Source: Isurus oxyrinchus
Lineage: Eukaryota
Length of the DNA: 64,000 nt
Assembly (NCBI GenBank): GCA_026770705.1
Contig: JANJGN010000146.1
Span: 992,001-1,056,000, forward strand
Reading direction: 5' to 3'
How positions within the stretch are numbered: the stretch's first letter is position 1; every line of letters begins with the position of its first letter. Made by a program: the position numbers and the translations under genes. This document shows, in pieces, positions 1,572 to 56,352 of this stretch. Below the pieces are notes generated by a model. The model did no database searches and was not told the DNA's origin. It saw only the letters and a list, made by a program, of their open reading frames with translations.

Positions 1572-2473
1572 TGAACATACTGACTATTGTGACCCTGTCT
1601 CGGGGAAGGTGCGGTCTCTCAAAATGTGTTTCCCTTTACCTGGTGTCCATGGCAACCGCGGATCTACTGGTCGTTATCCTTGATCTCATATTCAGGCAAA
1701 TTGCTATTCTTTACTGGGCTCAGTTTCAGTTCATGTGGAGGTTTAAAGTGTGTAATATCCATGCAGTCCTGCTTTATGCAGCCACAGATTGTTCTGTCTG
1801 GTTCACAGTCTCTTTCACCTTTGATAGATTTCTGGCTATTGGTTCCCAGAAGTTGAAAACAAAATATTGCACCCAGCATACGGCGGCTGTGGTTCTCGGA
1901 ACAGTCAGTCTGCTATTCTGTGTGAAGGATACATTCTGGTACTTTATGTATGTAGGTCAATATTCACTTTCCAATGCTCCTTGGTTTTGCACATTAGTGA
2001 CGTATGCTGAATTCTCATCAATGTGGGCAGCAATCGAATGTCTTCATTATATTTTAACACCATTTGCGCCATTTGTTTTGATTTTGATGTTGAACGCTTT
2101 AACTGTCAGATATATTTTAGTGTCGAGCAGAGCCCGTAGGAGACTCCGGGCTCACTGCAGTGGGGAGAGACCCAGGGACCCACAGATGGAGAAACGCAGG
2201 AAATCCATCATTTTACTATTTGCTATATCGGGGAATTTTATCCTGTTGTGGGTAGTTTTTATGATACATTCTGTTTGTAATAGGCTATATATGTTAGATG
2301 TAATTCCTGTATACCTTCCTAGGTTTGTGCAGGAACTGGGATTTATATTTCAGCTCCTGAGTTGTTGCACTAACACGGCCATTTATGCAGTGACCCAGAC
2401 TCAATTCAGAAATGAGCTGAAGAATGTGGTGAAATATCCCTTTTCTGTAATTTTTAAATTTATTAAACAGTGA
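1572..2473 (+). CDS. GPR139/GPR142-like class A GPCR (paralog A), coding exon 2 (TM1 C-half to C-terminus); exon 1 not found in window
   Basis: Open 300-codon frame with rhodopsin-family motifs: MATADLL (TM2), FTFDRF (DRY-type), PWFC (ECL2), LTPFAPF (TM5), NTAIY (TM7). It is preceded by a polypyrimidine tract and acceptor ctcttccttacAG at 1570-1571, in phase 1 like the paralogs, so the GTG 'start' in the ORF track is really the splice junction. Confidence 0.9.
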
Positions 2474-3083
2474 CAAGAATATCCATTATCAATACGAGTT
2501 GACCCTGTTTTATTCCCAATCTCTTCACCTCGGTGATGAGCACAGCGTGAGGCCAGTTTTCATCTTTCACCGCCAGGATTCAATGACTAACAGAAACGGT
2601 GCATTTGGGAAGTAATTTACCTCAGTCCTGTTTGTCCTGCTGGTTTCCAGGCTATTCCAACTCTCCTGTTGTCCTTGGGCCTGGTGTGTGAAATTCCCAC
2701 CCACCAGGCTCGAGTTTCATGTCATTACCAAAAGGGGCTTTGGAGGATAAGGCCACTTGTGCAGGTTACAGTCCAGGGGCGGACATGCTGCAGTGTCTCC
2801 ACTATCCCAGGGAAACCTTGTTCAAAACATTTCGGACCAACCTGCAGATGGGAGGGTGGGTTTTAGAGGTTCGATGTCAATTATTTCAGCTTTTCAAAAT
2901 CTTTCTGTGATTTTATTCCAGTGTTTTTAGAGCTGAACAGTCACAGTATCTCGGAGTGGGACGTCTCCTCGTTTCAAATAAAGAATTATTTCCACTGCAC
3001 AAGTTATGTTCCAGTGAAATTCGTCAATTCAAATGTCCCCTGAACTCATCTGGAAAAATTATGTTCAGGAGAGGAGAGAGAGG

Positions 3084-3084
<1 letters not shown>

Positions 3085-3118
<34 letters not shown>
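3085..3118. repeat. Poly-G tract (34 nt)
   Basis: Direct reading. Confidence 0.95.
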
Positions 3119-3120
<2 letters not shown>

Positions 3121-3459
3121 ATGTGCTCGGAACTGAAATAAAAAACAGCAATGCTGGGAATAATCAGCAGCCCTCGCTACCTTTGTGTGGCGAGAAACAG
3201 ACTAATGCTTCAAGGGCTTCCATCAGTGTTGTGACACTCTTACGTGATCCAAAAGACTCCTGCTGCTGCAGCAGTAACTGAAGCATGTCATTTCAAAGTG
3301 TGAGGTGTGGGGTGAGGGGCGCCGGCGACCTAAGTGTGTGTTTTTTATTGTGGCTGTGGGGGTGGTGGGGGTGATGGAGTATAGAGTGAAATATCAAACT
3401 TTGTCAGCATCTGGCCAGTGGGGAAGTGGAAGGCTCACTACTTGAGAGCCAGCTGTTCA

Positions 3460-4420
3460 CAACATATGAATGATTTGGATATGAGCGCCAAATGTAATAT
3501 TTCCAAGTTCGAGGATGACACAAAGCTTGGTGGGAACGTGTATTGTGAGAAAGGTGAAAAACGGTTTCAAGGCGATTTGGACAGACTTGGTGAGGGGGTC
3601 AGAACAGGAAAGATGAAATTTAACGTGGAAGAATGCGAGGTTAACCAGCTTGGTAGGATTAACAGATGTGCAGATTATTTCATAAAACGTGAGAGCCTGG
3701 AAAATGTAGCTGTACAAGGGGGCCTGTGTACCCTCATCAATAAGTCTCTGAAACCTGGCATACATATGAAGCATTTAGGAAGGCGAATAGAATGTTAGCT
3801 TCTCTCACAAGTGGATTTGAATACAGCCATAGTGAATTCTCTTTTCCTTTGCATATAATCTTGGTTAGGCCACCCCTGGGGTACAATGTGCAGGTGTGGC
3901 CCCCTTACATTCGGAAGGGAGTCATTGTCATTGAGGGAGTGAATCGAAGGCTCACCAGATTTGCATCAGGGATGGCGTGACTGTCCTGTGAAGAAGGATT
4001 GGGGACACTGGACCTGTATTCTCCAGAGTTTCCAAAAATGAGGAAAAAGATCTCATTATAACAAACAAAACACCTGAATGGAAGAAAATGTAAATGAAGG
4101 TCAGATGTTTCCCCTGGTCGGGGAATCTAGAAACAGGGGACACAATTTCAAAATAAGGGTAAAGCCACTAGGGCTGACATGAGGAGAATTGTTTTTTACT
4201 CAGTGATTTGCGAATGTTTGTATTTCTGCATCCCGGAGAGCTGTCGAAGCACAATCATTGAGTATGTTTAAAGCAGAGAATGGCAGATTTCTAAATACCA
4301 AAGATATAAACGGTATGAGGATAGTGTGGGTGAAAGATGTTGAAGGAGATGATCATCCATGATCGCAATGAAAGGTGGGACAGGTTCGATGGGTTGAATG
4401 GCATTCTCCTGTTCCTCTGT
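3460..4420 (+). mobile_element. CR1 LINE RT/3' fragment
   Basis: ISKFEDDTKLGG (FADDTK motif), LVRPPLGYNVQVWPPYIRK and a typical 3' tail. Confidence 0.85.
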
Positions 4421-5209
4421 TCCGATGCGATAGGTTTGGATTTTTATTGCATTCTTTATTTGAATGGAGCATTGCAGACAAAGCCAGTGTTTATTTCCAT
4501 CCCTCATTTCCCTGGATAAGTTGTTGGTGGGGACGTTCTTGAAGAGAAGTTGTCCATCTGGTTTTGCTTGTCTGCAGCAGTTTGATATAACTCACGGTGT
4601 CCAGACTATTTCAGGACCAGCCACATTGTTGTGAGTCTGGAATCTCGTGGAGCAGCCAGAATGTGGGGAATTCCTGGAGATTACCAGAGATTTCATATTT
4701 AGACCGAAATCATCCCCATTCCTGAAAGGGTTTCAATTCCTGATTTTTTGACGGAAATTCAGCCAGTTGCTGTAACAGGGTTTGAACATTTCTTCAGTCT
4801 TTTTAGCTTATCCGCATTGTGACATTACCAATACACCAGGATCTCCCTGTGGGTGTGGAGGGGGCGGGGGCATAGCAGAGAATGCCTGGGATGATAATTA
4901 CAGCGCTGGACGAACAACAGAAGAAAGTATGGATCCGCCAAAACACTAATTGTCTGTTCTCACTGGGGAACGGTTGTTCAGCTCCTCCAGGAGCTAGAAG
5001 TGTGTTACTCACACATCCATTCTGCTGAAACAATAAGGACACCCAGTTCTCGTTGCACATTCCCCTCTCTCAATTTATAGCCATTCAGATAATAATCTGC
5101 CTTACTGTTTTATCCCCATTATATTGCATCAATAAGCCACTCCCAAATCCCATGTGCAATGACAGCGGTTAAAAAAAATGCAGCCATGAGAGGAGGGAAG
5201 TCCTGAACA

Positions 5210-5456
5210 GTAAAAGCTAAATATTGCGGTTTCTGGAAATCTAAAACTAAAAGAGAAACTGCTGCAAAACCTCAGCATGTCCAACATCACCTGTGGAGAT
5301 AAAGACAGGATTAACGTTTTGAGTCTTTATGACTTTTGTTCAGATAAGAAGACTCTGAAGTAGAATCATGCGGGCTCGAAACGTTAACCCTGTGGTTTTC
5401 TTCACAGATGCTTTATGAACTGTTGAGATTTTCCAACTTTTTCTGTTGTTGATTCA
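5210..5456. mobile_element. Hairpin (inverted-repeat) Penelope-terminus-derived element
   Basis: Left arm ...aaaacctcagcatgtccaacatcacctgtgg...ttaacgtttt mirrors right arm ...gaaacgttaacc...acagatgct...ttttctgttg. Confidence 0.7.
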
Positions 5457-5788
5457 GATGTCCTGACGGGCTTTGTGGTAGAGGAAGGGAGAGAGATTGG
5501 GAGAGAGACAGGGTTTAAGCAAAAACTCCACTCATTCATAAATATCATTCCGAGTCTTGAAGATGTGTAGGTAAGTTTTCTCTGCCTAACCCTTCCTTTA
5601 TTCAACAACATGGAACCTCGCGCCTGAACTCTGAGGAATTGGAGAAAAGTGGCGCAGTTTCAGATGGATGATATTGGAAGATAGCAGGATATGAAGAGAA
5701 ACTTCTGCTGTTATTCCCGTGATCGGGAGGCTCTGAAGTATCGTCTGACGAAACGATGAAGCAGGTAGAACGAAATCCCTGGGGTGAT

Positions 5789-5995
5789 AAATGCAAAATA
5801 CTGCGGATGCTGGAAATCTGAAACAAAAATAAAATTGCTGGAAAAACTCAGCAGGCCTGACAGCATCTGAGGAGAGAGCAACAGAGTTGACCTTTCGAGT
5901 TCAGCTGAAGAAGGGTCATAACGACTCGAGAATCTGTTTCTGCCTCTGCAGATTCTATCAGACCTGCTGATATTTCCAGCGTTTTCTGTTTTCAC
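5789..5995. mobile_element. Hairpin Penelope-terminus-derived element flanked by 12-bp direct repeat CCCTGGGGTGAT
   Basis: Inverted arms, with direct repeats at 5777-5788 and 5996-6007. Confidence 0.78.
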
Positions 5996-7417: not shown

Positions 7418-7426
7418 TCACTTGAT
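7418..7426 (-). pseudogene. IgH membrane exon TM2 coding part, copy 1 (IK-stop)
   Basis: tccttcttttacAG|ATC AAG TGA after a 140-nt intron. This gives a K-I-K tail equivalent to the IgM KVK tail; AATAAA follows at 6968-6973. Confidence 0.8.
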
Positions 7427-7566
7427 CTGTAAAAGAAGGAGACAATAATGAAGCAGATATTTATGATCAGGTGCATTTATGTTATTACTTTTAATTGTTG
7501 AAATGTTTAGAAAATTTTCAGACCGCTTCTGCCAGATTGTAGCATGAGTGGATTGAATCTTCTCAC

Positions 7567-7694
7567 CTTTACCAGAGTGACGGCAATGCTGTCGAAAATG
7601 CTCAGGAAGAACAGGACGATGAATGTTAGAGATTTTGTCCAGATGTTTCCGTTATCGTCCTCATAGCCTTCAATCCAGATGTGGTCTGTGGAAT
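7567..7694 (-). pseudogene. Orphan immunoglobulin heavy-chain membrane exon TM1, copy 1 (IgM-like)
   Basis: 128-nt exon tAG|...|GTgaga encoding (D)STDHIWIEGYEDDNGNIWTKSLTFIVLFFLSIFDSIAVTLVK. It has an acidic spacer plus the mIg TM signature (W-TASTF..LF.LS.FYS..VTL.K), here with TAS>KSL and Y>D. Confidence 0.85.
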
Positions 7695-9719
7695 CTACAC
7701 GGATATTACCGAGGGGTTGGCCAATGGGAACCTCAATTAATCTCAGCAAAAAAAAAATAACGACAAGAAATCAGATAATACATTAAAAATTATGTGATGT
7801 CAGAATAAAGCTGGAATTTATCCATGTGAAAGTACCTGTTATTACATAGAAACAGATAACACTCACGAGGAGAAAGATGGAAAGGCAAGGTGTCACGGCG
7901 ACGCCATTTCATCGGAACATTCACGTCTTCAGCATCCAGTGCCTTTTGTTATGTTTACGCCATTGCTTTTTTGACTTGTGTACGTTTGCCTACCATTTTA
8001 TAGCCGTTTATTTAATTGAGGATAAAATTATTAATATTTTATTTCAGTTTTGCGGTAGCTAAATGGATAACAAAGCTTAGCATTGCACTGCACAGATGGA
8101 GGCCAGTACACGCATTATTCCTGTTCCTGAAAGTGCTATTCCATTTGTCCGGTTCCAATGCTCTTTCTCATAGTAATTTATTTTCCTTTCTAAATAGTGA
8201 TTCGTTTTTGGAAGAAATATTATCCAGTCTGCTTCTACCACGTGTTCAGCTTGTGCATACACAGGTCACCATGAATAACTTATTTAAAAAGTCCAGATAT
8301 CCCCAGTGGTTTTTTAACCGCTCCCACCAAAATAAAACAAACAGAAAAGAAAAGCCGAGCGCAGGAATTGAATATAGTTATTACTACAGGTGCCAAGTAG
8401 GAGCGATAACCCATGGGGATAGCAACTTTAGCCACCATTTACCACAATGGACTTGAATGAGCTGATCTCAGTGCTGGGAAGTATAGTATAAAACATTTGC
8501 ATACCACGCTAATTTAGGAAGGGCTGAGGTTTTGCTTATGCTAAGGATAAATGTGACCAAATACAAGAATATCAAAAACTCGTGAGGATAAATGACAAAG
8601 TAATTTGATTCTGAACAAGATTGAAGTGGTGTAATTTGGTAGGAAGATTAAGCCGAGGAAATCTACTGGTTGGAAATTATTATCTTAAATGAGATTAAGA
8701 CTCGGGGTCATCCAGAATGGTCGTGCTTCAAAAATCAAGGAATTCCCATTGAGATAAATGCCGCAACATTTGCAGATGATTGGGAAATTTCAACTGATTA
8801 AATGTTCCAAGATAAATTTTTCACGAATATGTCCACTGAATAGTCCACGCATGTTGACTGAAAGTCCAATCAGCACGTCCATAAAACTCCCCTAACACTT
8901 TTCAGTTTCGTTGATAGCTCATCGACCTGAAACAGTTAACTGTTTTTTTGTTCTCAATCCCGAGATGTTATCCAGCCGAGGAAATGTGTCCAGCATTTCC
9001 TCGTGCATATAGAAACACTCTCCGAAGAGAGCACAATAAATTGATACTGTATTTTTTTCATGTTATTGGTGTGGAATATTGAGACAGACAAGTTTTCAAT
9101 CATCAGTAATTGCGACCCAGAAATATATTCTTTTACTGTTAGTAGAGAAGTGGGAATAGGCGAATTTCGTGCAGATATTTAAAACATCTCCATGGATTAA
9201 AAAAATGACTTTTTTTATAGAGCGTGTCAGAGAATCGTTGTGACTCAGGTCACATTGCGATCAACATGGTTGATGAACAGCTGTCCAAAATTCAATTCTG
9301 ATTCGTCGACCTAAGTGGCCACTTAAATTTAATCGAGCTTCCTTATGCAAATACGTAAGCAACCTGCAGGGTGCCGCACACAAATCAAAGAGAAAGCCCT
9401 GACTATTAAAGAGTGGTTGGTGCTCCAGAAAAGCAGATGCAAATTTGATCCAGGAAAGTACAAAGTAATGAGTTTGATGTTCAGAGTGTGTAATGCTGTG
9501 CAACCGTTGCTGCAAATAAAGCCATGGAACAGAAGGATGTAAAGTTATCTCAATATATAGTCGATATATGTTCATGAAAGGGAGTCTGTATCATTAAACT
9601 TCACTAGGTAGGGTCCATTTAATAGATGTGATACCCTTGGCTTTTTTAGTCCTTGTACGTAGTTCATCAAGGAATCAGTTGCTGGAATCAGTGGATATAT
9701 TTTTCAAGGGGTTACTAGC

Positions 9720-11180: not shown

Positions 11181-11184
11181 AAAA

Positions 11185-12960: not shown

Positions 12961-12974
12961 CACTTAGCTATTAC

Positions 12975-16732: not shown

Positions 16733-18122
16733 ACAGAATCAAAGGATCGCACAGTGCAGAAGAGGCCCTTCGGCTCATCGAGTCTGTACTGACACGTGAG
16801 AAACACCTGACCTACCTAACTAATCCCATTGACCAGCGCTTGGCCCACAACCTTGAATGTTAGGACGTGCCAAGTATTCATCTAGACACTTTATGAAGGA
16901 TGTGAGGCAACTCGCCTCCACCACTGTCCCAGGCAGCGTATTCCAGACCGTCCCCAATACCTGGGTAAAAAAGGTTTTCCCTCACATCCCCACGAAACCT
17001 CCTGCCCCTCACCTTGAACTTGTGTTCCCTCGTGACTGAGCCTTTGACTAAGGGGAACAGCTGTCCCTATCCACCCCTTCAATACCCCTCACAAGCTTGT
17101 ACACCTTGAACTGGCCGCTCCTCAGTCTTCTCTGATTCGCCGAAAAAACCCAACTCTATCCAACCACTCTTTATAACGTAAATGGTTCATCCCAGGCTGC
17201 ATCCACGTGTACTTCCTCTACACCGCCTCTAGCACAATCACATCCTTCCTATCATTTGGCGATCAAAACTGCACAGAGCACTCCAGCTGTGGTCTCACCA
17301 AGGTTCTATACAACTCCAACATGACCCCTCTACTTTTGCAATCGTGCCTCGATTGAGAAAGGCAATTGTCCCAAATGCCTTTTTCACCACCCCACTATCA
17401 TGCCCCTCTGCCTTCAGAGACTTATGGACACATGCACCAAGGTCCCTTTGTTCCTCAGATCTTCCTAGTGCCATGCCGTTCATTGAATACTTCCTTGTCA
17501 AATTACTCCTTCCAAAGTGTATAACCTCTTGCTTTTCAGTGGTAAATTCCATCTGCCACTTATCTGCCCATTTGACCACCACGCCGATATCTTCCTCCAG
17601 CCCAAGCCTCTCAACCTCACTGTAAACCAACCGGCCAATCTTTGTGTCATCCGCAAACTTACTATTCCTACTCCCCACATAGTCATCTATGTCATTTATA
17701 TAAATAATGAATAATAGGCAACCCAGCACAGATCTCTGTGGTACACCACAGGACTCGGGTTTTCAGTCACCAAAGCAGCCTTCTATCATTACATTCTGTC
17801 TCCTACAACTAAGCCAATTTATAATCCACCTTTTCAAATTACCCTGTATCCCATGTGTATTTGCCTTATTTATAAGGCTGCCATATGGGACCTTGTCAAA
17901 GGCTTTTCTGAAATCCATATTAACTACATCAACTGCACTACCATCATGTACACACCTGGTCACCTCCTCAAAAATTCAGTCAAATTTGTTAGGCATGACC
18001 TACCTCTAAAGAATCAATGCTGAATATCTCTTATCAAACCTTCTCTCTCCAAGTTAAGGTAGATTCTTTCCTTCAGAATTTTCTCCAATAGTTTCCGGAC
18101 CACTGACGTGGGACTCACTCGT
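16733..18122 (-). mobile_element. CR1 LINE RT + 3' end
   Basis: DVVNMDFRKAFDKVPY, LFIIYINDID and SKFADDTKIG. Confidence 0.92.
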
Positions 18123-19487: not shown

Positions 19488-20395
19488 TCATTTAAAAAAA
19501 TTAACAATCAGACTCAATGGATATTTCACACCATTCTTTAACTCCTCTCTGAATTTACTCTGGGTACCTGCATAAATAAAGGGGTTGATGCAGGAACTTA
19601 AAAGCTGCAGCATAAGTCCACATTCCTCCATTATTATATTTGATTGATTGAAATTCGAGCCATCGAAATAACTAACGCTGGCAATTCGTGCGTAGAGGAA
19701 AGTTTTAAGAGCGAGGAAATATAACAGGATGAAACTTCCCGAGATGGCAAAGAGTAAAACGATGGACTTTCTCCTCTTCTCCATCTCTGGGTCGCTTTGG
19801 TTATCACTCTTGCTGTGGGCTCGCAGTCTTCTGCGGGCTCGACTGGCCACAACAATGTGCCTGACCGTCAGAACATTGAGCAGCAAAATAAGAACGAACG
19901 GGAGACAAGGGGTTAAAACGGCATTTATGCTGTCATATGCCACCCATCCGGGTGATGAATACAATATTGGCTTTAGTTTGCAGTACCAGGGTGTATTGTC
20001 CGTGATAACAGAAGGTTCACAAGCAAAGTACAAGGGTATTCTTTTAGCACAATGCACAACGCAGACAGTTCCTATGACCACAGCTGCTGATTTCTTGGTG
20101 CAATATTTGGTTTTCAGCTGCTGACAACAAATGGCTACAAATCGATCAAAGGTGAAAGCAACTGTCACCCAGACAGAAGAATCCCTGACGCCATATATGA
20201 ACACAAGACTGAGAGCAAAGGCCGGAGTGATGGAGAGGAAACTGAATGGGAGATATGTACCTACAATCCGGTTTAACATCACAGCAAGGATCATGATCAG
20301 GAGATCCGTCACGGCCATGGACATCAGGTAGTATGTGATACATCCAGTGAGACCGCATCTTCTTCGGGACAGGATCACAATTACTGCCAGATTAG
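19488..20395 (-). CDS. GPR139-like GPCR (paralog B), coding exon 2
   Basis: Acceptor ctgtcacAG|CTAATCTGGCA, then an open frame (A)NLAVIVILSRRRCGL...FTFDRFVAIC...NPFIYAGTQSKFR...stop. Joined to exon 1 it gives 325 aa. Confidence 0.93.
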
Positions 20396-21784: not shown

Positions 21785-21854
21785 CTGCAATCCCGATCGC
21801 TGCAATGACGGGATAATATATGATGAAAATAAGACCTTTTGGCAATCCGTGCAT
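21785..21854 (-). CDS. GPR139-like GPCR (paralog B), coding exon 1 (MHGLPKGLIFIIYYPVIAAIGIA)
   Basis: 70-nt exon from ATG to a phase-1 donor G|GTTAAG. Homologous to exon 1 of paralogs C and D; intron 1389 nt. Confidence 0.9.
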
Positions 21855-21905
21855 TTCTGTCACCAGCTGCGAGTGTGTTCTGCACCACAACTAAAGACAG
21901 TCACA

Positions 21906-21975
21906 TATATATCTCACGCCAGCCTCCAGGGAGACAATTACACGCTTTGATCTTTTGCAATAATTACGCTAATTG
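21906..21975 (-). promoter_or_regulatory. Proximal promoter of paralog B: TATA-like box, homeodomain/Ebf composite TAATTGTCTCCCTGGAG (21924-21940), extra TAATT sites
   Basis: Motifs read directly from the sequence; spacing to the ATG is identical in paralogs C and D. Confidence 0.7.
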
Positions 21976-22904: not shown

Positions 22905-25400
22905 ACCGAAATATTGAAAATAGGAGTAGGATTACTCCTTCGAGCCCTTCGAGCTTGCTCCGCCATTCAGTTTGATGATGGCTGATCCTCTATCTCAACG
23001 CCTTAGTCCTGCACTCTCCCCATACCCCTTGATGCATTTGAAGGCTAGGAGTCTATTTATTTACTTTTTAAATATATGCAGTGACTTGACCTCCACAGCT
23101 CTCTGTGCTAGAGAACTCCGCAGGTTCGCCACCTTCTGATTGAAGACCTTTCTCGTCATTTCAGTCCTAAATGGTCTAACCCGTATCCTGAGTCTGTGAC
23201 CCCTTGTTCTAGACGCCCGAGTCAGAGGAAATATCATCCCTGCACCAGCCTGTAGATCCCTGTCAGAGTTTCATATGTTTCAGTGGGATCGCCTCTCATT
23301 CTTCTGAGCTCCAATGAATAAAGGCCTTGCTGGCCCAATCTCTCCTCATACGACAATTCTACCAGCCCAGAGATCAGCGTGGCGGACCTTTGCTGAACTC
23401 CCTCTGCGGCAAATATATCCTTTCTTAGATAAGGAGACCGGAACTGCACACTCTACTCCAGGTGTGATCTCACAATGACCATGCACAGCTGCAGTAAGAC
23501 ATCGTTGCTGCTGCTCTCAAATCCTATCGCAATAAAGGTCAACGTACCATTTACGTCCTTAAGTGCTTGCTGCACCAGCATGCTTGCTTTCAGTGATTGC
23601 TGCGCAAGGGCATCTCGGTCCCTTTGCACATCAACATTTCCAAATTTATCACCAGTTAAATGATATTATGCTAATCTGCTTTTCCTGCCATAGTAGATAA
23701 CTTCACACTTATTTTCCCAATCACTGAACCTGCGTAAGTCGCCTTGAAGCGTCTGAACACTCGCCTCATCGCTCACATCCTCACCAAGTTTCGTGTCATC
23801 AAAAATTGGAAATTTTTCCTTTTGTTGCGTCATGCAAATCATTGATATATATATATTATATATATATATACACATATATTTATATATATTGTAAATAGCT
23901 CGGGCCAAAGCACTGATCCCTGCTAGTCCACTCGTCACCGCCTGCCACGCCAAAGAAGACCCACTTATTCCTGCTCTCTTTCCTGTCTTTAATTTTACAC
24001 GCTAACCTTTTATGTGGGTCTTTGTCAAAGACTTTCTGATATTCCAAATACATCACAGCCACTGGTTCTCCCTTACCTTTTTTGCAGGTTATGTCCTTAA
24101 AAACTCCATAAGGTTTGTTAAACATGATTTCCCCTGATGGATACATGTTGACATTGTCTCATCCTATTGATATTTTTCAAGTGCCCTGTTATCACATACT
24201 CTACAATAGACTCTAGCATTTTCCCTACTATTGAGGTTCGGCTGACTGGTCTGTAATTCGTTGTTTTCTCCCTCACTCATTTTTTTTTTAAATACCGGGG
24301 TTATAATTAACACGCTGCAATCTGCCGGTACTGTTGCAGAATCTACATAATTTTGGAAGATGACAACCACTACACTCACTATTTACAAGGCCACCTTGAG
24401 TACCCCAAGATGTATATTATCAGGCCTTGGGGATTGATTGGCTTTCAGTCCGATTACTTTCTCCAGCACAACTGTGTTTGTAACATTAATTTCGTTGAAT
24501 TCTTCCTTCTCAATAGACCCGAGGTTCCTTCGTATTTCTGTGAAGTTATTTAAATCTCCCTAAGTGAAGACAGAGCTAAAGTAATTGTTCTATTATAAAT
24601 GCTCCCGTTTCAGACTGAGGTTTTTTAATAAATATATTTATAGATGCTTTTAATGACCACTTTTATGTTACTTGCAAGTTTACCCTCATCCAATATTTTC
24701 CCCCCTTATTCGAACTCTTGGTCGTCCTTTGCTGAGTTCTAAACTATTCCCAATCCTCAGGCTTGCTAATGTTTCTAACATCTTCACATGAACTCTCTTT
24801 AGATCTAAAGCTATCCTTAATTTATTTTGTTACCCATGGTGGGGCCGTTTTTCCTGTCTTGTTCTTTTGGGCAAGAAAATAAAGTATAACTTTTGAAATG
24901 TATGCACACTTTCGTTAATCATTGGACGTTGTCTACGCACCATCTTTCCTTTTAATAAAGTACTCCAATTGATCTTAGCCAACTCAAATCTCCTACCTTT
25001 GTCGATTCCTTTGTTAGATTTAGCACCCTCGTTTCAGACCAGACTACTTCACTTTCCATTCCAATGAAGAATTCTATCATGTTGGTCACTGTTCCCCGAA
25101 GGACCCAACACAACAAGATTATGATTTAAGTGCTTCTCATTTCACTATACCAAATCTAGGATAGCCTGATCCCCAGTCCGTTCCTCAACATACGAGTCTG
25201 AAAAAAAAACATTTCGTACACACTACAGGAATCTATTCGCCATTGTAATTGCTATTTTGGTTTGCACACTCTATATGTAGTTAAAAGTCATCCATGATTT
25301 CTGGAGCACCCTTGTTACATGCAAGTCCAAGTTCCTATTTTATGCCGTCCCCTATGTCGGCACTGCTGTCTGGAGGTCTGCAGATAAGTGATCTTTTCCA
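22905..25400 (-). mobile_element. CR1 LINE, ~2.5 kb degraded ORF2
   Basis: ITPVFKK, YLEYQKVFDKDPH, WQAVTSG, DDTKLG and QFRSPYLRKD. Confidence 0.9.
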
Positions 25401-29554: not shown

Positions 29555-32500
29555 GTTCCCAGGCATTCTGTTTCTTGTGTTGACAGGATTATTGGCAATG
29601 ATACGGATGCTGCATAATATAGTTTAATTGTTACTTCAATATTGTAATTTACACCTCAATTTCTTCATTAAACGGGTCATTTATTTTACATGCTTAGATG
29701 TTAATTTTACATTGATATTGATGTAAATTTAACTCACGATGGTTGCGGTGTGTACAAAGCTCATCTAATTTGTTGATGGATCATGCAAATACAGTTGAAT
29801 TGACAGGGAGTGACAGCTGATTCGCAGGATTTGTATGTGGGCCTCAGCTTTTCACCGCATTTAGAAGGATCAAAATGAAGCAACAGTAAGTTTCGTATCC
29901 AAATTGCTGCAGAAAATAAGCCATGTGGTACAGTAAATAGTTTAGAGAAGAACAGGACATTGCGAAGGGTTGTTGTTGGATAACTGAATGAGCAAACTGT
30001 GGGAGAAAGAATACAATTTGTGGAAGGGTGTTTTTCTCTGGTGCTTTATGTTTAACCATTGCACGTCACCATATTTTCTAATTAGCGTGAAACTATAAAT
30101 GATAGTGGTAAGTATTTTCCATGTTTTTGTTCACCCGCCACATGTTTATTGGTGTTCAATTTGCATTGCGTAACTTTAACATCAATCATTGCAGTCGATG
30201 AACTGTTATGAAGACCATTTTTAACTCCGTTGCTGCTGTTAACAACTGCATTCAATTCTCTTTAGAAGTGCACTTTGTTTTCAAGACTGTGCGATACCCT
30301 TTGGAGCCGGAATTAATTATATTCGTAGCCACTTTATTTAGCTCAACTAAATTTTGAAATCTCAGTGTTCGTTCGGAAAGCCCTGGGTTTGTTCCCTACT
30401 TCCGAACTGGTGTCTGTAGCCCAGCTCCATGCCGCTGAGATAGTCCAGCACTTTCTACTCTGTGGTCCTTCTGACGAGGCTGTAAACCGAGGTCTTTCTG
30501 CTTTATCAGTTGAAAATCCTCACTACTGCTGCGAGACCTAATCTCCCACTACAGCAGTCACTGAACTGAAAAAACGCCTTTGATGCGCTTTGTCTTGCTT
30601 CCACAGGGACAAAACCCAAGTTGAATCAATGGTGTTCGCTTAGATTTTCTTTTTCAACGTACATTGGTTCCTTCTGATATTTATTAGGATTTCGTTATTA
30701 CCCATACCTTATTTCCTGTCATTCGATTGGTTTCTTTATTATAGTGATTTAAAGTTTCATAACGTTATTATTTACTGTATTTATAAATGAATAAATGTAT
30801 TGAGCTTTTATCTGTATTTTTATGCCATTTTCAGGTTGTCCTTTTGCCAACTTAATACGTTAGTGAAGATCAATTCCTTCTACTTCTAGATTACATAAAA
30901 TGTACATCAATCGGAAAGTAACAGTTTTGTGTCATTTTATATTCCGACTTCCACTTTATCGGAGACAATATAAATAAAAAATGGACCAGAATTAATGCAT
31001 TGGTAAACTAATCAGTTCCAGCGTTGAATGAAGTATCGATGGCCCATGTGCCATACCATTCTCCCGCCAAACGAACATAGTAGCTGGGAGATTCAGCACT
31101 AATTCTTCCCTTCTCTCTCATCTCTTTCTCTCTCTCTCTCTCTCGCTTGCAGCTAACTTTCTGACTATCGTGATCCGTTCCCGAGGAAGATGTGGTCTTT
31201 CCAGATACGCAGTATCCATGGCGGTGACAGATCTCCATGTTATTATCATTACACTGGTATTAAGCCGGTGTTCGGCTGTTTATTTTCCAGTCAGTTTTCT
31301 GAGCCACTCAAAAGACGAGACAGAAACATTCTAAATCTGAATTCATTGTATTCTACGTATTTTTTTCCGGAATTAGGTCTTTTCAATCTTTGTTTAACCG
31401 TGAAGGCTTGAGGGTCAGATGTTTACTGTCTAGCTTCTACCGGATGTTTGGCTGCCCTCCAACAGTAAAAGATTCAAGATTGCTTAATGTGTTCCCGCGA
31501 TTTCTGTGTCGTGTGTTGACGGACTTTTTGGCAATGATACAAATGCTGCACAATGTAGTTTAATTGTTACTTCATTAATGTCATTAATTCTTGAATTTCT
31601 TAGTTAAACAGGTCGTTTATTGTACTTGCCTAGATGTTAATTTACAGTGATATCGATGTAAATTTAAGTCACGATGGCTGTGGTATATGCAATGTTCATC
31701 TAATTTGTTGATGGATACTGTGAATACAGTTCAACTGACAGGGGGTGACAGCTGATTCGCACGATTTGTATTTGGGTCTCAGCTTTTCACCGCATTTAGG
31801 AGGTTAAAAAATGAGGCAACAGTAAGTTTCGTATCCAAATTGCTGCCGAAAATAAGCCATGTGGCACAGTAAATATTTTGGTTAAGAAGAGGACATTGCG
31901 AAGGGTTGTTGTTGGATAACTGAATGAGCAAACTGTGGGAGAAGGAATATAATTTATGGAAGGGTGTTTTTTGTGGCGCTTTGAGCTTAGCCATTAGGGA
32001 TCAGCATATTTTCCAATTGGCGGGAAACCATAAATATTAGTGGTATGTATTTTTCTATATTTTTGTTTACCCTCCACATGTTTATTCGTAAATTTATCAA
32101 ATAGTTGCTATCGATGAACTGTTATGAAGACTTTTTTTAACTCTGTTGCTACTACTAACTGCTCCATTCAATTCTCCTAAAATGCATTTTGTTGTCAAGG
32201 CTGTGTGATACCCATCGGAGCCAGTATTTATTATGCTCATAGCCACTTTATTTCGGGGATCTAAATTTTGAAATATCAGCGTTCAAGCCCTGGGTTTGAG
32301 CCCTACTCCCGATCTCGAGTTCCTAACCTAGCTGCATACTCCTGAGGAAGGACAGCACTATTTGCTCTGTCGCACATTTAATCAGACTCTAAGTGGAGGT
32401 CTTTCTGCTTCTTCAATTGAAAATCTTCACTAATAATGCGAAAACTAATCTCGCACTACAGCAATCATTGAGCTGCAAAAAAACCGCTCATGTTCTTTGC

Positions 32501-33215
32501 CCTGTTTCCACAGGAACAAAACCCGAATTGAATCAATGGCGTTCGCTCAACTTTATTTCCCATCGTCCCGTGGTTCCCTCATTTATTTATTTGGAATGAG
32601 TTATTATCCATATCTTATTTCCTGTCATTCTATTGCTTTAGGTATTATAGCAGTTCCATAACATTTCATAACGTTATTATTTACCGCATTTTAAACGAGT
32701 AAATGTATTGATTTATTATCTGTACGTTATGCCAACTTCAGGCTGCCCTTTTGCCAATTTAATACGTTAGTCTTGTTCAATTCCTTCTACTTCCAGATTG
32801 CATAAACTTTACAAGAATCAGAAAATAAGTGTTTTGCGTTATTTCATGTTCCAACTTCCAATTTATTTGGGACAATATTAATAAAAAAAAACAGCCGTAC
32901 TACATTGCTAAATTAATCAGTTCCAGCGTTGAATCAAGTATTCATGATGCAAATTCCATACCCTCTCCCACCAAACCGCAGCTGTAGCTGAGAGGTTCGG
33001 CACTAATTCTGTTCTTTTCTCTCTCCTCTCTCTCTCTCTCTCTCTGCCTTACAGCTAACTTTCTAATGATTGTGATCTTTTCCAGAGGAATATGTGGTCT
33101 CTCCTGATGTATCACGCAGTATCTGGTATTCATGGTGGTGACAGATTTCCTTGTCATTAGCATTACCGTGACATTAAGCTCATTTCCAGCTGTTTATTTT
33201 CCAGTCAGTTTTCTG
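29555..33215 (+). repeat. ~1.9-kb direct tandem duplication (29555-31301 and 31490-33215) containing intron sequence and the start of GPCR exon 2
   Basis: Colinear blocks, e.g. ttggcaatgatac...tttaattgttacttca and cagtaagtttcgtatccaaattgctgc, recur ~1935 nt apart. Confidence 0.9.
31153..31301 (+). pseudogene. Truncated GPR139-like exon 2 fragment (TM1-ECL1 only)
   Basis: (CT)n plus ttgcAG acceptor, then ANFLTIVIRSRGRCGLSRYAVSMAVTDL...YFPVSFL. It has an internal deletion and homology ends abruptly at ~31301. Confidence 0.85.
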
Positions 33216-33956
33216 TCCAGCATTCCTCTATGTCGTCTTTGTTGCTTTAAACTTTGCTTCCAAATGTTGTACTCTCTGGTCAACCTTCAAATTCACCTTT
33301 TACTGCTTCTTAACCATTTGTCACCAGGAGCTGGAAATGGAATACTGCACTTAGAAAACAGCAACTGGAAATTTAGGAATGATCTGTGTGCTGTCCTCTT
33401 TGATAAACACCCTTTTTATTTCATAAATGAACCTATTTATATCGTTAACAATGTAACTCGGTGCTCTCTCATAGATGATGCATTTTATATTTCATTTCCA
33501 TGGAGAATGTTTGACTGGCTGGACTGTATTCTAACTCCATGTCTTTCCTTTCTCCTGATTTTGCTGCTCGATATTGAGAATTTCTGAAATATTCTACTGG
33601 CAAGTAGATCCTGCAGCAGACTTTGATCCCAAAGGAATGGAGAGAATCAGAGTGTCTCCGAGATGAAGAGCCACAGCAAGTCTATTGTTGTACTCTTCTC
33701 CATCTCAGGCAGTTTCCTCCAGCTGGTCTTAACGCATATTGTACGTTTCCTGTTTGCACAAAGTATGGGAAATAGCTGATCAGTTCCATTTCCATTGACA
33801 CAAAATATATTCTGCAGCAAAGCTTATAGTTTTTTAACTCCTTAGACCCTGTAGCAATACATTTATATACGCAGGGACCCAGACGAAATACAAAGCGGAG
33901 CTGAAAAGGGCGTTTAAATACTCTTTCAATCTATTGCCAAATGGCACAAACTGTGA
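33055..33956 (+). pseudogene. Full-length but disabled GPR139-like exon 2
   Basis: Acceptor ccttacAG|CTAAC. There is a premature TGA in GLS*CITQYL and several frameshifts and stops, but FPVSFLSSIPLC, LTPCLSFLLILL and YAGTQTKYKAELK remain recognisable. Confidence 0.9.
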
Positions 33957-37175: not shown

Positions 37176-37231
37176 TAATTAATGTAAAAGGCCTTCTCGC
37201 TGTCTTCCTAGAGGCCGACATCATGTATAAA
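37176..37231 (+). promoter_or_regulatory. Proximal promoter of paralog C: TAATTAAT, degenerate Ebf site TGTCTTCCTAGAG (37201-37213), TATAAA (37226-37231)
   Basis: Aligns by eye with the promoters of B and D at the same offsets from the ATG. Confidence 0.6.
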
Positions 37232-37282: not shown

Positions 37283-37352
37283 ATGCATGGGATACCAGAA
37301 GGTCTGGTGTTCGCCATTTACTATCCCGTTCTTGCAGCTATCGGTATTCCAG
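37283..37352 (+). CDS. GPR139-like GPCR (paralog C), coding exon 1 (MHGIPEGLVFAIYYPVLAAIGIP)
   Basis: 70-nt exon with phase-1 donor CCAG|GTAAAG. An alternative in-frame ATG lies at 37274. Confidence 0.92.
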
Positions 37353-38681: not shown

Positions 38682-39592
38682 CTAATCTGGCAGTGATTGT
38701 GATACTGATTCGAGGAAGATGCGGTCTCTCCAAATGTATCACTTACTACTTGATGTCCATGGCCATAACGGATCTCCTTGTCGGGATCACAGTTGTGATA
38801 TTAAACCGGATTATAGGTATTTATTTCCCGTTCAGTCTCCTGGCCATCACACCGGTCTTCAGCCTCAGACTTGTGCTAATTTATGGTGTCATCGATTCTT
38901 CTGTCTGGGTAACAGTGGCTTTCACATTTTACCGATTTGTAGCCATTTGCTGCCAGAAGCTGAAAATTAAATATTGCACTGAGAAAATGGCGGCTGCGGT
39001 GATAGGAACTGTCTGTGTACTGAACTGTGTTAAAAGCATCCCCTTGTATTTTATGTGTGAGCCTGCCTTTATAATTGACAATATACCCTGGCAATGCAAC
39101 TCAAAAACAATATTTTATACGTCACCTGCATGGGTCACTTATGAAAGCATAATCGCCGTTTTAACCCTTTGCCTCTCCTTCGTCCTTATTTTACTGCTCA
39201 ATGCTCTGACCATCAGACACATTGTAGCGGCCAGTCGAGCCCGCAGGAGACTCCGGATCCAGAGCAATGGAGAGTATCAAAGTGACCCAGAGATACAGAA
39301 GAGAAGGAAATCCATGGTTTTGCTCTTCTGTATCTCGGGCAGTTTCATCCTGTTACATTTGTTAAGCCTTATAAACTTCCTCTATGTCCGAATTGCGAAT
39401 CTTAGCTATGTGGACTCTACTAATATCAGTGAATCAAATTTTCTTATGGAGGAAAGCGCACGTATGCTTCAACTTCTGAGTTCCTGCGTCAATCCGTTTA
39501 TTTATGCAGGGACCCAGAGTAAATTCAGAGAAGAGTTAAAGAATGGTGTGAAATTCCCATTGAATCTGCTTGTTAAATTATTTAAAAGATGA
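38682..39592 (+). CDS. GPR139-like GPCR (paralog C), coding exon 2
   Basis: Acceptor ctgtcacAG|CTAATCTGGCA and an open 7TM frame with NPFIY; 326 aa when spliced. The DRF motif is changed to YRF. Confidence 0.9.
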
Positions 39593-43269: not shown

Positions 43270-43545
43270 ACCATTTACGGGGGAATCAACATTATTTTTA
43301 GGGGACAGTGAATATTGCATTCAGGGGACATTAATGATTGAATTTAGGAGAAGGTGATGATTGTAGTTAGGGGACACTTGAACATTGTATTTAGCAGCCA
43401 GTGATCATTACGGTTAAGGGACTGTTGTCATTGTTTTAGGGGACAGTGAAAATTGTATTAGGGGACAGAGATCATTCCATTTACAGGGCAGAGAGCATTG
43501 TATTTAAGGTCAGAGCAGACTATATTCAGGGAACCGTTGTCATTT
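43270..43545. repeat. Degenerate ~22-bp minisatellite (cattgtatttaggggacagtga)
   Basis: About 12 diverged units visible. Confidence 0.75.
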
Positions 43546-44700
43546 GCACCGAACTTCCCGAATTCGGTACGTGGGGGTGGGAGGGGTTGTGCGCAGTAAG
43601 TGCCCCAGAAGATGCACCCGGGGCCCCCCAGGAATTTCCCATGTAAACTTTACACAGATATTGCACAGGAACTTCAAATTTCCGATGGAGAATTATCCTA
43701 GATGCCTTGGAATCATCTGGAAATCAAATTTAAATTGCAGAACATACGTAGCTCCACCACTCTTAGCAGAATAGGTATCCAGGAAAAGTTAGGGGATTTG
43801 AAATAATTTCCGACTTCCCGATTCCCCACTTGACCCCCAATATTCCCCTCCACCATTCCTCACTCCGCCTGCCCTCATTATCCTCCTGACAGCCCGACTA
43901 CCTTCTTGCCCCTGACTACAACCCCATCCCCCAGAATAACCCGACTAACAAAACACCACCCGATTATTCCTCCCTCCGCAAATAGCCTCACCCACGCCTC
44001 GACTGACCACCCGCAGACACAAAATACCCCTGGACTAATTCTACCCCCTCCGACCTATCCTACCCACTCCACCTATCCTAATCCCGACGCATTCTATTCC
44101 CCTGAACCATGCGACCACCCGATCCTTCCTATCCCATTCCACCTACCCTAAACCCGGGACCATCCTATGCCCCTGACCCATACTGCCCCACTCAACTCAT
44201 CCAACCAGCCAGCCACAGATTACATCACTGAATCATCCTACCACGCTCCATCATTCTACCCCTGATCCATCCATCCCGAATGGCACACCCAACCCCACTC
44301 GCCCCGTCCTACCTCCAACGCATCATACAGCACTCCAAGTATCATACCCTGAAGCACCCAATTCTCCTAGCCCAACCTACCCCCCTCAACCCCTCCTGCC
44401 TCCAAGGACTATCCTACAGTCTGGACTATTCTAACCCACTCGACCTAATCTACCCACTCTACCTCCCCGACAGACAGCCTCTGCCAGTCAACCCGTCCGA
44501 ACATTTCTGCCCCGAACAATCCTGCCCCACTTGAACTAGACTACAAGCCCGACCATTCCTCAACTGCCGACGAAATCTACTCCTGACACAAGTTACACTA
44601 CGTCAACTGTTCGAAAGACCTTATCCATTCGGTCAGTTCAAAGCATCCTACCTCACTAGGGCTTTCCTGATCCCGATCTACCCTTCCCCTGACACATCCA
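43545..44700 (+). repeat. Interspersed repeat with long C-rich low-complexity arm; related copies at 48650-49400 (inverted) and 49550-50240
   Basis: cttagcagaataggtatccaggaaa at ~43763 matches the reverse complement of tttcctgggtacctattctgctaag at ~49212. Confidence 0.6.
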
Positions 44701-45345
44701 TTGACCAGAAACGGAACTGGGCTAGCCATGTAAAGACTGTGGCTACAAGAGCAGGTAAGAGGCTAGGAATCCGGCTTCGATTAACTCACCTCCTGATTCC
44801 CCAAAGCCTGCCCACCACCTACAAGTTACAAGTCAATAGTGTAATTAAATACTTCCCAATTGCCTGGACGAGTGCTGCTCCAACAATGCTCACGAAACTT
44901 GGCACCATCCAGGACAAAGCAGCCTGCGTGATTGACCCTCCATCCACAAATATTCACTCCCTCCACCACCGGTGCACAGTGGCAGCACTGTTTGCCATCT
45001 ACAAGATGCACTGCAGGAATTCACCTTAGACAGCACCTTCCAAACTTACGGCCACTACCATCCCGAATGACAAGTGCAGCGGATATATGGGAACTCCAAC
45101 AGCTGGAATTTCCCCTCTAAGTCACTCACCATACTGACTTGGAAATATATCGCCGTTCCTTCAATGTCTCTGGGTCAATATCCTGGAACTCCCTCCCTAA
45201 CAGAAACATAGGTGTACCTACACTACATGGACCGCAGCAGTTCAAGAAGGCAGCTCATTAACACCATGTTCTCAAGGGCAATTACGGGTGGGCATTAAAT
45301 GCTGACTGGATCTGGGATGCCCACATCCATGAATGAATAAAAAAA
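44700..45345 (+). mobile_element. LINE 3' end (HER1-like), relatively young
   Basis: ATRAGKRLGI...TTYKLQVNSVIKYFPIAW...LHHRCTVAALFAIYKMHC, with tail catgaatgaataaaaaaa. Confidence 0.85.
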
Positions 45346-53234: not shown

Positions 53235-54145
53235 TTATCGTCCAAATAATTTAACAATTTCAAGTAGTGGATATTTCACCCCATTCTTTAACTCTTCTCT
53301 GAATTTACTCTGGGTCCCTGCATAAATAAACGGGTTGATGCAGGAACTCAAAAACTGAAGCATATATGCATTTTCCTCAAGAATGAATGTTGGTAGATTG
53401 ATTTCAGAGCTTGAAAAGTATTTAACATTTCCAATTTGCACACAGAGGAAAGTTATAAAAAGTAACAAGTATAACAGGATGAAACTTCCCGATACACAGA
53501 AGAGTAAAATCATGGACTTTTTCCGCTTCTCCATCTCAGGGTCACGCTGATTGTCTCCATTTCTCCGGGTCTGGAGTCTCCTGCGAGCTCTACTGGCTGC
53601 GAGAATGTGTCTGACTGTCAGGACATTGAGCAGTAAAATCAGAATGAATGGGAGACAAGGGGTTAAAATGTGATGAATGCAGTCATAGGTGATCCATGCA
53701 AGTGAGGTATAAAATATCACTTTTACATCGCAGAACCAGGGTACATTGTCCATTATGTACAAAGATTCGTATATAAAATACTGGAAGGTGTTTTTGACAC
53801 AGCTGATTGCGCAGATTGTCCCTATAACCCATGCCGCCGTTCTTTTGGAACAACATTTTACTTTCAGCTTCTGGCAACAAATGGCCACAAATCGATCAAA
53901 GGTGAAAGCTGTAGTTAACCAGGCAGAGTTGTCTATGGCTGAATATATTAGAGCTTCACGGAGACTGCATACTGGTGTGATTGACAGGAAACTGAATGGG
54001 AAATAAATACCAGTAATCCGGTTCAATATCACAGCGGTTATAATGAGCAGGAGATCTGTCACCGCCAGGGATTGTAAATAATAGGTTATACAGGTGGAGA
54101 TACCGCATTTCACTCGAGAAAGGATCACAATCACCGCCAAGTTAG
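53235..54145 (-). CDS. GPR139-like GPCR (paralog D), coding exon 2
   Basis: (CT)n tract plus ttgcAG|CTAACTTGGCG acceptor; open 7TM frame with TPVC (C3.25), FTFDRF, PWFC and NPFIY; 326 aa when spliced. Confidence 0.93.
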
Positions 54146-55330
54146 CTGCAATAAAGAGAGAGAGAGAGAAAGAAAGAAGGTGGAAAGAGAGCGAGTTTGT
54201 GTGTGTGAGTTTGGGAGAGAACGAACACAGGAAGGTTACTGCTCAAACTATAAACAAATCAACAATTTTACAGGCTTCTGCATGAATTTGTACATTTCAG
54301 ACATGGACCCCAGTTGCGCAATTGCAATGGGCAAATGATTCAGCTTTGAAAATTGAAATCTTAGTTCAATATAGGGCAGGTCAAACTTATACGAATGTCA
54401 AATAGTTTAATAAAAACTAATGGAGAACAAAAGGCATCGTTAGCACAGAGAAACCAACATAGAATTTTTGCATAAGAAGAAATTGTACGCATCTGCAAGG
54501 CATTGCAGGAAATAATGACGAAGGTAAATAACAAAACAAGCAACAAGATGTGTGGAAACGAATAAGGGCGCAGATTATATCTCACTGAAGATCAATACAG
54601 TTCCTTTCCTATATAATAATTGGCAATAATTATTGTAAATTTTTCGTTGTTGGGAACTTTGGGAATTAAACCTGCTCAAAAATATCCACATACAGCGAGG
54701 AGTAAAGGGGCAATGAATGATTTCTTATCTTCCAGACAGGTCGTTTGCCTGCATGTGAAGATACATCCTAGCTCCTCACTTATAGTCAACTGGAAGATCA
54801 GTGTCGATCTGAACCTTTGGAAATGGCAGAAGCCGAAGTCTCCTTCCGAGTGAGGTCCCTCTTGCAATGCAGCACTGACTCCGGATCAACTATCAACGTT
54901 GTCCTGTAGTGGATATTTGAAATCAAAGTATTGCGCCTCAGATGCGAAGGACGCAACCAAGTAGGCAGCCTCACTCCATAGGAACAAACAGCCGAGACAG
55001 GAAAATGTGGGACATTGCCCGGTGATATCAGCCGAAGGAAATTCTGGCGTCAACAGTGGTCAAGTCGAAGCGTCAGCAGCAGCTCATGAACCAATTAGTG
55101 TTGGAGACTGAGAGCAGAAACACACCTCTGTGATTGTGGTGCTAATATAGAATATTCATCAAAAGTCTATTATTACACTGTTTATACATCTGTCAAAAAC
55201 TGGGTGCTCATGATGTCCTTCCATCAAATTCATTGGGGGAATATTGAATGTTACATTGCTCTCTATCAATGAAACATTTGTGGGAATTGTTCGATCATTG
55301 TCATTGTGAACAACACAACAGATTTACTTT

Positions 55331-55745
55331 TGCACCGTGAAAACAGTGTGATAGCTCATCCACAGTTAGACTGTCAGTAACAGAAGATGATCCCATTCAC
55401 AGTGTGTTTAAAGTGTGATAACATAACCACAGTTTGACTGTCAGTAACAGAACACGAACACATTCATACTGTGATTAAAGTGTGATCACTCAACCACAGT
55501 TAGACTGTCAGTAACAGAAGGTGATCACATTCACACCATGATTACAATGTGATAATTCACCTTCAGTAACGATACTGGAAACACAATGGAAAGACATTTA
55601 GACTGTAATGTCACTGTTAAAATACAACTGCAGTAACAGAAGATGATCACACTTGCACTGTGATTACAATGTGATAATTCTCCTTCACCAACGGTGCCAG
55701 TAACAGAATGGAACGGCAATTGCACTGTGATAACAGTGTGAAAAT
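55331..55745. repeat. ~67-bp minisatellite in the intron of paralog D
   Basis: cacagtt[a/t]gactgtcagtaacagaa occurs at 55361, 55428 and 55495, followed by diverged units. Confidence 0.85.
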
Positions 55746-55779
55746 ACACCAGTACTAAATGGTGCAAAACACCGTTGAA

Positions 55780-56160
55780 GACGGTAATATAATACCACTT
55801 ACAATGAAAATTTACACCCTTATAAGGGGGATATTATACCGCTAACAGCAAGAAATTTCACCCTGAACAGGGTAATATTTTACGATTAAAAGTGAGAAAT
55901 TGCACACTTAGCAGGGTAATATGATAGCACTTAAATTGTGAAATTTTGTTTTTAACAAGGTAATATTATGCCACTAACAGCGAAGAATTGCACCTTTAAC
56001 AGCATATTATTAAGCGATTAGCAACGAGAATTTTAGGCAAAGGGAACAAATTATATTGTCAAAATTGAGACATTATACCTATAAAGTGGGGAAAATGTGC
56101 TTTTAGAGGGGTAAAATATACTTGTTAAAAGAGGGAAATTGCTCCATTAATAGGAAGAAT
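55780..56160. repeat. Degenerate ~39-bp tandem repeat
   Basis: Recurrent ggtaatat...gaaatt.cacc.tta units. Confidence 0.65.
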
Positions 56161-56282
56161 TGTACAGATAAAGGGCGAACTGGGAGCATGAGTATAACAC
56201 TATGGATATACAATGCTTTTAAAAGGTAGAATTCCTGCAGATAACCGATTTCCGTATCAAAATACTAATTACAATACTTTAC

Positions 56283-56352
56283 CTGGAACCCCGAGAGCTG
56301 CAAGGACTGGATAATAAATGGCAGACAGAAGGTCTTTTGGTGATCCGATCAT
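56283..56352 (-). CDS. GPR139-like GPCR (paralog D), coding exon 1 (MIGSPKDLLSAIYYPVLAALGVP)
   Basis: 70-nt exon with phase-1 donor CCAG|GTAAAG; intron 2137 nt. Confidence 0.92.

Follow-up and report, generated by a model that had tools for sequence, protein, structure and literature searches.

A very large family of GPR139-clan receptors in a shark genome, with predicted olfactory-type promoters

The window studied here is a 64,000-nucleotide stretch of Isurus oxyrinchus DNA (GenBank assembly GCA_026770705.1, contig JANJGN010000146.1, positions 992,001 to 1,056,000 of the forward strand). It carries six related receptor loci in mixed orientation, labelled A to F from left to right, as an initial annotation made from the letters alone had described and as six-frame translation and tblastn bear out. 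The loci belong to an apparently undescribed GPCR (G protein-coupled receptor) family with more than 2,000 gene copies in this one genome. From the sequences we infer a chemosensory role: the family is probably a repertoire of receptors for odorants or other chemical cues in olfactory neurons, evolved independently from an ancestor in the GPR139 clan. We regard as evenly poised the broader proposal that it is a further vertebrate olfactory receptor family, the largest in cartilaginous-fish genomes, that it arose within the GPR139 clan and came under Lhx2/EBF-type control separately from the odorant receptors (ORs), and that bony vertebrates (salamanders) retain no more than a relic of it.

The olfactory organs of sharks are large, yet the known olfactory receptor genes of cartilaginous fishes number only about 10–50, a small repertoire that has so far been explained as a trade-off of sensitivity for discrimination (10.1101/2022.11.27.518102). 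An olfactory repertoire of the size described here would overturn that account, and the view of shark smell as based on 10–50 receptors would then be an annotation artefact. If the family is olfactory, it would represent an independent origin of vertebrate chemoreceptors together with reuse of the Lhx2/EBF promoter code. Even with an immune or other function, thousands of GPCR loci would be a major undescribed feature of these genomes.

Family size and copy number

Protein searches scored the best ~130 of 7,600–8,000 first-look candidates, and counting was done with DNA motifs. Across the 4.98-Gb genome there are 2,043 exact matches to a motif from transmembrane helix 3 (TM3) and 1,305 to one from the third intracellular loop (ICL3), with no match to the control in either case. 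The TM3 motif is present in 13 of the 26 loci found in three contiguous stretches (354 kb) and caught 17 of 23 ICL3 matches where both lists were complete (compared by hand); these capture rates imply a total of roughly 2,800–4,000 loci. Fifteen of the 26 loci are intact and 11 broken. Among 40 scattered loci, three have no motif-bearing frame, and 18 of the 37 such frames in the remainder are intact (16 by script, 2 by eye). Extrapolation from the two intact shares gives about 1,000–2,000 intact-looking second exons. With more than 2,000 loci, roughly half of them intact, the family is neither small nor mostly pseudogenic, and the tandem expansion with pseudogenisation read from the window alone proves to be part of a large, clustered birth-and-death family.

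The 129 distinct intact sequences, a sample biased towards four queries, form 53 clusters at 90% identity and 39 at 80%, with a lowest identity of 30%. The family has been amplified as cassettes of several genes duplicated in tandem and segmentally, and copies have often become pseudogenes; the window cassette itself recurs inverted next door (92–93% identical) and on contig C38 (98% over 26 kb).

Promoter sequences

The promoter signature of the family is new here. Upstream of genes B and F, TAATT[AG] is followed by TCCCTGGAG and then, some 57 bases ahead of the ATG, by a TATA box; TCCCTGGAG agrees with the Olf/EBF (O/E) core published as TCCCyngrga (PMC3247239). Divergent members have an O/E-like site about 11 bases before the TATA box, often beside a homeodomain site. 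The promoters and enhancers of ORs are marked by O/E plus homeodomain sites (PMC3247239, PMC5608512), and O/E-like sites have been described in 39 of 39 V1R promoters (PMC3247230).

Of 23 promoters found via exon 1, 12 contain the O/E core with at most one mismatch; shuffled sequences give 2.6, and the core is present in 2 of 17 windows taken upstream and in 15 of 112 from the genome. When 17 promoters are anchored on the TATA box and two mismatches are allowed, the O/E-like site is found in 13, against 0/17 and 2/17 in flanking windows; column conservation in the TATA-stacked promoters is 0.61 at the site and 0.43–0.48 in its flanks. Six of the 23 promoters have a homeodomain site no more than 20 bases from an EBF-like site, a spacing met 0.23 times in shuffles and in 4 of the 112 windows from the genome. 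Searched genome-wide, a homeodomain–O/E–TATA composite has 28 matches (control 0), and all 20 that were fetched precede an exon 1 of the family (15 by script, 5 by eye). A second homeodomain–O/E pattern has 824 matches (control 12); among the first 30 fetched, 20 are followed by exon 1, five more stand in the same promoter context and five are unrelated. A strict palindromic O/E pattern was found in only 1 of 14 promoters, a lone homeodomain motif is unenriched (10 of 14, 9.1 expected), and de novo Gibbs sampling returned a TCCCnGGAG motif in one of six runs.

In many of the family's promoters this predicted O/E-like site keeps a fixed distance from the TATA box that follows it, and a homeodomain site often adjoins it. 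We consider the signal to be a footprint of conservation rather than proof of binding, because the patterns were drawn up once the sequences had been inspected and the copies have a common origin.

Two further elements were noted upstream: CAGCTG E-boxes (10 of 14 upstream regions, 4.0 expected), and a block, TGTT(TG)TTCA(A/G)T, that recurs upstream of the homeodomain site in promoters L061, L110, L129, L165, L168 and L306–L327. They suggest additional shared regulators, possibly of the forkhead and basic helix-loop-helix types.

Receptor class and diversification

The family was assigned to class A on the basis of the Pfam domain 7tm_1, seven helices, the residues N1.50, D2.50, R3.50, P5.50, N7.49 and Y7.53, and the cysteines linking TM3 with the second extracellular loop (ECL2). 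Pfam 7tm_1 is matched by 59 of 59 members, and none of the 59 has an OR, TAAR, V1R or V2R/class C match at E 0.1. Across 39 subfamily representatives R3.50 is invariant (39/39), and C3.25 and C45.50 are present in 35 and 37 respectively. The predicted model of a close named relative (P0001, 76% identical to gene F; predicted local distance difference test score 84.6) shows seven long helices and a hairpin in ECL2, and its N-terminus is all but absent. The TM6 proline (6.50) is lost, and NTxxY stands in place of NPxxY in 30 of 39 representatives; these changes may alter the activation switch.

Activation of GPR139 by Trp and Phe requires F3x33, H5x43, W6x48 and N7x38 (PMC5430874). At the corresponding sites, Y or F is present in 24 of the 39 representatives (Y in 21), H in 18, W in 31 and N in 5, and none of genes A, B, E and F holds all four residues. 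An amino-acid (Trp/Phe) ligand is not supported.

Inner helices and cytoplasmic face are conserved across the family, and the pocket and outer loops have diverged. With pocket positions assigned by generic class A numbering rather than from model coordinates, the mean entropy among the 39 representatives is 2.30 bits in the pocket and 2.27 in the outer loops, against 0.99 in the inner helices and 1.22 in the cytoplasmic parts (P<1e-7). Within five subfamilies (85 of the 129 sequences) the rate of nonsynonymous substitution (dN) relative to the gene-wide synonymous rate (dS) is 0.80 in the pocket and 0.90 in the loops, against 0.36 in both core and cytoplasm; overall within-subfamily dN/dS is 0.56. 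Comparison of models M1a and M2a favours positive selection in both of the two subfamilies tested (P 0.001 and 0.0004), with sites at 3.32 and at the top of TM7. Taken together, the alignments make diversification between subfamilies clear, and ongoing positive selection is only suggested.

Taxonomic range and ancestry

Among the best 120 homologues of gene F, 119 are named and come from 11 shark species, and one is without a name; the nearest named proteins to the window genes are all from sharks. For a deep-branching member, 117 of the best 120 are named, and these come from sharks, rays, skates and sawfish. One chimaera member was found, and the catshark members are annotated in databases. 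The database names are misleading, being mostly "probable GPR139" but also "capa receptor-like" and "GPR15-like".

Against solved structures, the family profile gives human GPR139 as best match (E 1.3e-15), followed by the PrRP receptor (4e-13). A single-sequence PDB search placed the CCK-A receptor first and did not single out GPR139, and a fold search ranked GPR139 second among near-equal scores, all listed matches being class A receptors. The intron acceptor of this genome's true GPR139 has the same position and phase (phase 1, before the TM1 Asn) as in the family. Exon 1 of GPR139 was not found within 100 kb upstream, nor that of the third paralogue described below within 20 kb, and the promoters of these two genes could therefore not be used as controls.

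True GPR139 and a GPR142-like gene are separately present as single copies (on C15 and C22), as are two further GPR139-like paralogues. The third paralogue has orthologues in chimaera, rays, coelacanth, lungfish, sturgeon, gar and teleosts, and the fourth in coelacanth and one teleost. A profile search of 1.84 billion representatives found, among the 30 matches looked up of 150 listed, a salamander gene bearing the family's own motifs. In a tree of 45 rows the family is one clade (98/94) with the salamander gene as its sister (100/99, long branch); the fourth and then the third paralogue are next out (98/95 each), and GPR139/142 fall outside that clade. The shark fourth paralogue entered the final tree as a fragment covering 18% of columns. 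The outgroup consists of two receptors only, which we take from their sequence to be of the somatostatin type, and the tree does not resolve the root of the clan. The single founder lineage of the family predates the split between sharks and bony vertebrates.

The initial description as GPR139/142-like is borne out for membership of the wider clan, by profile, intron and tree. Closeness to GPR139/142 proper does not hold, given 25–33% identity, separate orthologues and nearer paralogues: the phylogeny with GPR139 and GPR142 that had been proposed as a check returns the family as a separate clade within the GPR139 clan. An origin of the loci as duplicates of GPR139 itself was rejected. A family confined to sharks, rays and chimaeras, with no bony-vertebrate relative, was likewise rejected on account of the salamander sister gene.

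The third paralogue (L164, G000:C6:157839119-157840018; P0121–P0240) carries the name GPR139, keeps the TM6 Arg and Pro as in GPR139, and has no amniote among its 120 best matches. The fourth (L294:1498-2487, G000:C9:126.71 Mb, minus strand) is 59% identical to coelacanth XP_005988539.1 and has one in-frame stop in ECL2, being either a pseudogene or an assembly error. The salamander gene (P0453, P0505 and P0508, from Pleurodeles, Ambystoma and Lissotriton) is well conserved, with no frog, teleost or amniote counterpart among the matches looked up.

Loci in the window

The initial annotation had counted three complete loci, one partial and two pseudogenic. B, E and F are indeed complete and C and D broken; A is not partial, since its exon 1 was found outside the window. 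Exon 2 of gene A (1572..2473, plus strand) runs from the end of TM1 to helix 8. Its 32-codon exon 1 lies at about −3792, 3.8 kb to the left of the window, across an intron of 5,267 bases. Gene B, on the minus strand, has exon 2 at 19488..20395 and exon 1 (23 codons plus 1 base) at 21785..21854, giving a spliced product of 325 residues; its putative promoter (21905..21940) comprises TAATTG (21940), the O/E-like TCCCTGGAG (21932) and a TATA-like box. Locus C (31152..31304, plus strand) is a 5' fragment of exon 2 of about 150 bases, a tandem copy about 79% identical to D, which is itself a pseudogene with in-frame stops and a frameshift (33048..33942, plus strand).

Gene E is on the plus strand, with a putative promoter at 37176..37231 comprising TAATTA (37176), a weaker O/E-like site TTCCTAGAG (37205) and TATAAA (37226), a 23-codon exon 1 at 37283..37352 and exon 2 at 38682..39592 (product 326 residues). 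Its frame is open, but it reads TFYRF, with Tyr replacing the Asp of the DRF motif (D3.49Y), and may be non-functional, since all 39 of the subfamily representatives have Asp at this site. Gene F, on the minus strand, has exon 2 at 53235..54145 and a 23-codon exon 1 at 56283..56352 (product 326 residues), preceded by a putative promoter at 56404..56438 with TAATTA (56438), the O/E-like TCCCTGGAG (56430) and TATAAA (56409).

The introns of B, E and F are GT-AG, in phase 1, and follow YYPxxAxxGx[PA], and the spliced frames have no internal stop. The four long frames (A, B, E, F) are 47–72% identical to each other, and 7tm_1 is the only Pfam match of all four (E 1e-16 to 1e-23). Cytoplasmic motifs described initially as nearly invariant are so in the case of SRARRRL (4/4) and TQSKFREELK (3/4), and less so for RGRCGL (2/4) and DPEMEKRRKS (exact in 1/4). 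An N-terminus of about ten residues is likewise true of B, E and F and not of other subfamilies: in L268 and L165, the largest, exon 1 encodes a long N-terminus of 7-residue repeats, rich in N-x-T sites and variable in copy number.

The right half of the window (29540-60177) has an inverted copy about 20 kb to the left of it (G000:C146:942001-971255, 90–93% identical), which carries mirror genes of C, E and F, and the gene A unit is repeated 67 kb away in direct orientation as a pseudogene (85%). Minisatellites occur at 55345-56002, in the gene F intron (67/134-base and 44-base units), and at 43297-43515 (23/47-base units). Short broken frames at 3385-3795, 17298-17762, 23669-24158 and 44535-45026 look like remnants of the reverse transcriptase of long interspersed elements.

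Expression data and literature

Contigs from six read sets of presumed RNA origin, which carry no tissue record, were compared with gene F (X9, X10, X12, X13) and with L165 (X7, X9, X11, X12), and pieces of related family members occur in all six. The two exons are not joined in any of these contigs, and a contig from X11 runs from intron into exon; the pieces may therefore stem from DNA and weigh neither for nor against expression.

The literature searched, with most subscription journals and several supplements outside its reach, contains no description of the family expansion. There is no mention of the family in the parts covered of a catshark expression study (PMC11979771) and a GPR139 review (PMC12208981), and no family match in the supplementary files of whale shark (part of the set) and catshark cartilage studies. 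Catshark olfactory sensory neurons (OSNs) are microvillous, and all carry TRPC2 and Go (10.1101/2022.11.27.518102). In the same source the V2R co-receptor labels OSNs at "moderate frequency", from which we infer that neurons remain for another receptor family.

Discussion

On the explanation that we favour, that of an olfactory repertoire, Lhx2-type and EBF factors would switch the promoters on in scattered olfactory neurons. The receptors would differ in the waterborne ligand that each binds but would all signal through the same G protein. The ligands are likely not simply Trp or Phe.

Several points weigh against this explanation. No GPCR is among the 50 genes most specific to a brain-plus-olfactory library from catshark, although V2Rs are also absent there (PMC11979771). 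The promoter patterns were chosen after inspecting sequences, the TATA anchors of the 17 promoters were picked by eye, and the O/E core is present, at no more than one mismatch, in only 3 of 11 promoters fetched afterwards (P 0.13). The sites are degenerate, several subfamilies (L257, L258, L271 and L272) have no clear site, and the 824 and 28 genomic matches are mostly recent copies rather than independent cases. The locus counts overstate diversity, because many copies are 92–99% identical within duplicated cassettes; they may also include haplotype duplicates, and many loci are on unplaced contigs. Variability on the ligand side is generic among GPCR paralogues. The contrast with a conserved cytoplasmic face, drawn in the initial annotation, stands in the entropies, whereas in dN/dS it hinges on the choice of dS: when every region is scaled by the dS of that region alone, the values are 0.49 for the pocket, 0.50 for cytoplasm, 0.42 for inner helices and 0.77 for loops, and the subfamily of gene A has no pocket excess (0.45). 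Support for M2a is inflated by recombination, which is present in both subfamilies concerned (P 0.027 and 0.003), and the implementation of the site models fixed relative branch lengths. Finally, B cells and many other neurons are likewise under EBF control.

A different function that we regard as unlikely is that of a repertoire of immune sensors. Its members would be receptors of leukocytes or B cells that recognise peptides or metabolites of microbes; pathogens would have driven their diversification, and EBF1, a regulator of the B-cell lineage, would drive their expression in B cells. Birth-and-death clusters and ligand-side variation would fit such receptors too, and a RUNX-like motif occurs in 4 of 14 upstream regions (1.3 expected). 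Ets and IRF motifs, in contrast, are unenriched (1/14 and 0/14), and the homeodomain site adjoining the O/E site is the olfactory combination; more weakly, the family goes unmentioned in one supplementary file from work on the spleen of the nurse shark.

It also seems improbable that the family is a passive by-product of unstable, repeat-rich segmental duplication, in which a few neuro-endocrine or peptide receptors function and most copies are redundant or decaying. The recurring window cassette, the 11 broken loci among 26 and the overall dN/dS of 0.56 are what such a process would leave. It does not readily account for dozens of deep subfamilies (the 39 clusters at 80%) shared with rays, for a core dN/dS of 0.36, or for a promoter element conserved across diverged flanks.

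No extra-nasal vertebrate repertoire near this size is known, and the predicted O/E–homeodomain–TATA promoter points to olfactory-type neurons. Chemosensory use outside the nose, in taste buds, solitary chemosensory cells of skin and gill, gut enteroendocrine cells or cranial sensory ganglia, is accordingly quite doubtful to us, even though GPR142 is an enteroendocrine amino-acid sensor (PMC6323244) and the TRPC2/Go cells that make up all the OSNs of catshark have already been attributed to V2Rs (10.1101/2022.11.27.518102).

Comparison with known receptor systems

GPR139 and GPR142 belong to the same wider clan as the invertebrate FMRFamide/MIP/sex-peptide-receptor-like receptors (PMC11004728). 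The family resembles them in its best solved-structure profile match and in the phase-1 intron acceptor shared with shark GPR139. It differs in its low identity to them, in their separate single copies and in their place outside the clade that unites the family with the salamander gene and the unnamed paralogues; moreover, the Trp/Phe residues are incompletely kept and the TM6 proline is lost.

The unnamed paralogues and the salamander gene (coelacanth XP_005988539.1, Pleurodeles XP_069092602.1) share with the family a short N-terminus, the exon end YYPxxxxxGxP and the motifs CG[LM]S and RKSI.LL. Unlike the family, those seen are single- or low-copy genes, and the searches run found no function for them.

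The FMRFamide/MIP/sex-peptide-receptor-like group is expanded in snails, for example Lymnaea (PMC11589774), and in the ESM Atlas the nearest non-chordate clusters to the family are of this type. The shark and invertebrate expansions are nevertheless independent, because the invertebrate receptors occupy a separate tree branch and Pfam Srw, the nematode family, is matched by 0 of 59 members (Srx weakly by 17 of 59).

With OR, TAAR, V1R/ORA as well as V2R/OlfC the family has in common a large, clustered birth-and-death repertoire, a variable ligand side and O/E plus homeodomain promoter sites, which in the family are predicted. It is unlike them in lineage, having no match to their Pfam families and lying in the GPR139 clan in the tree, and in having a coding region split by an intron.

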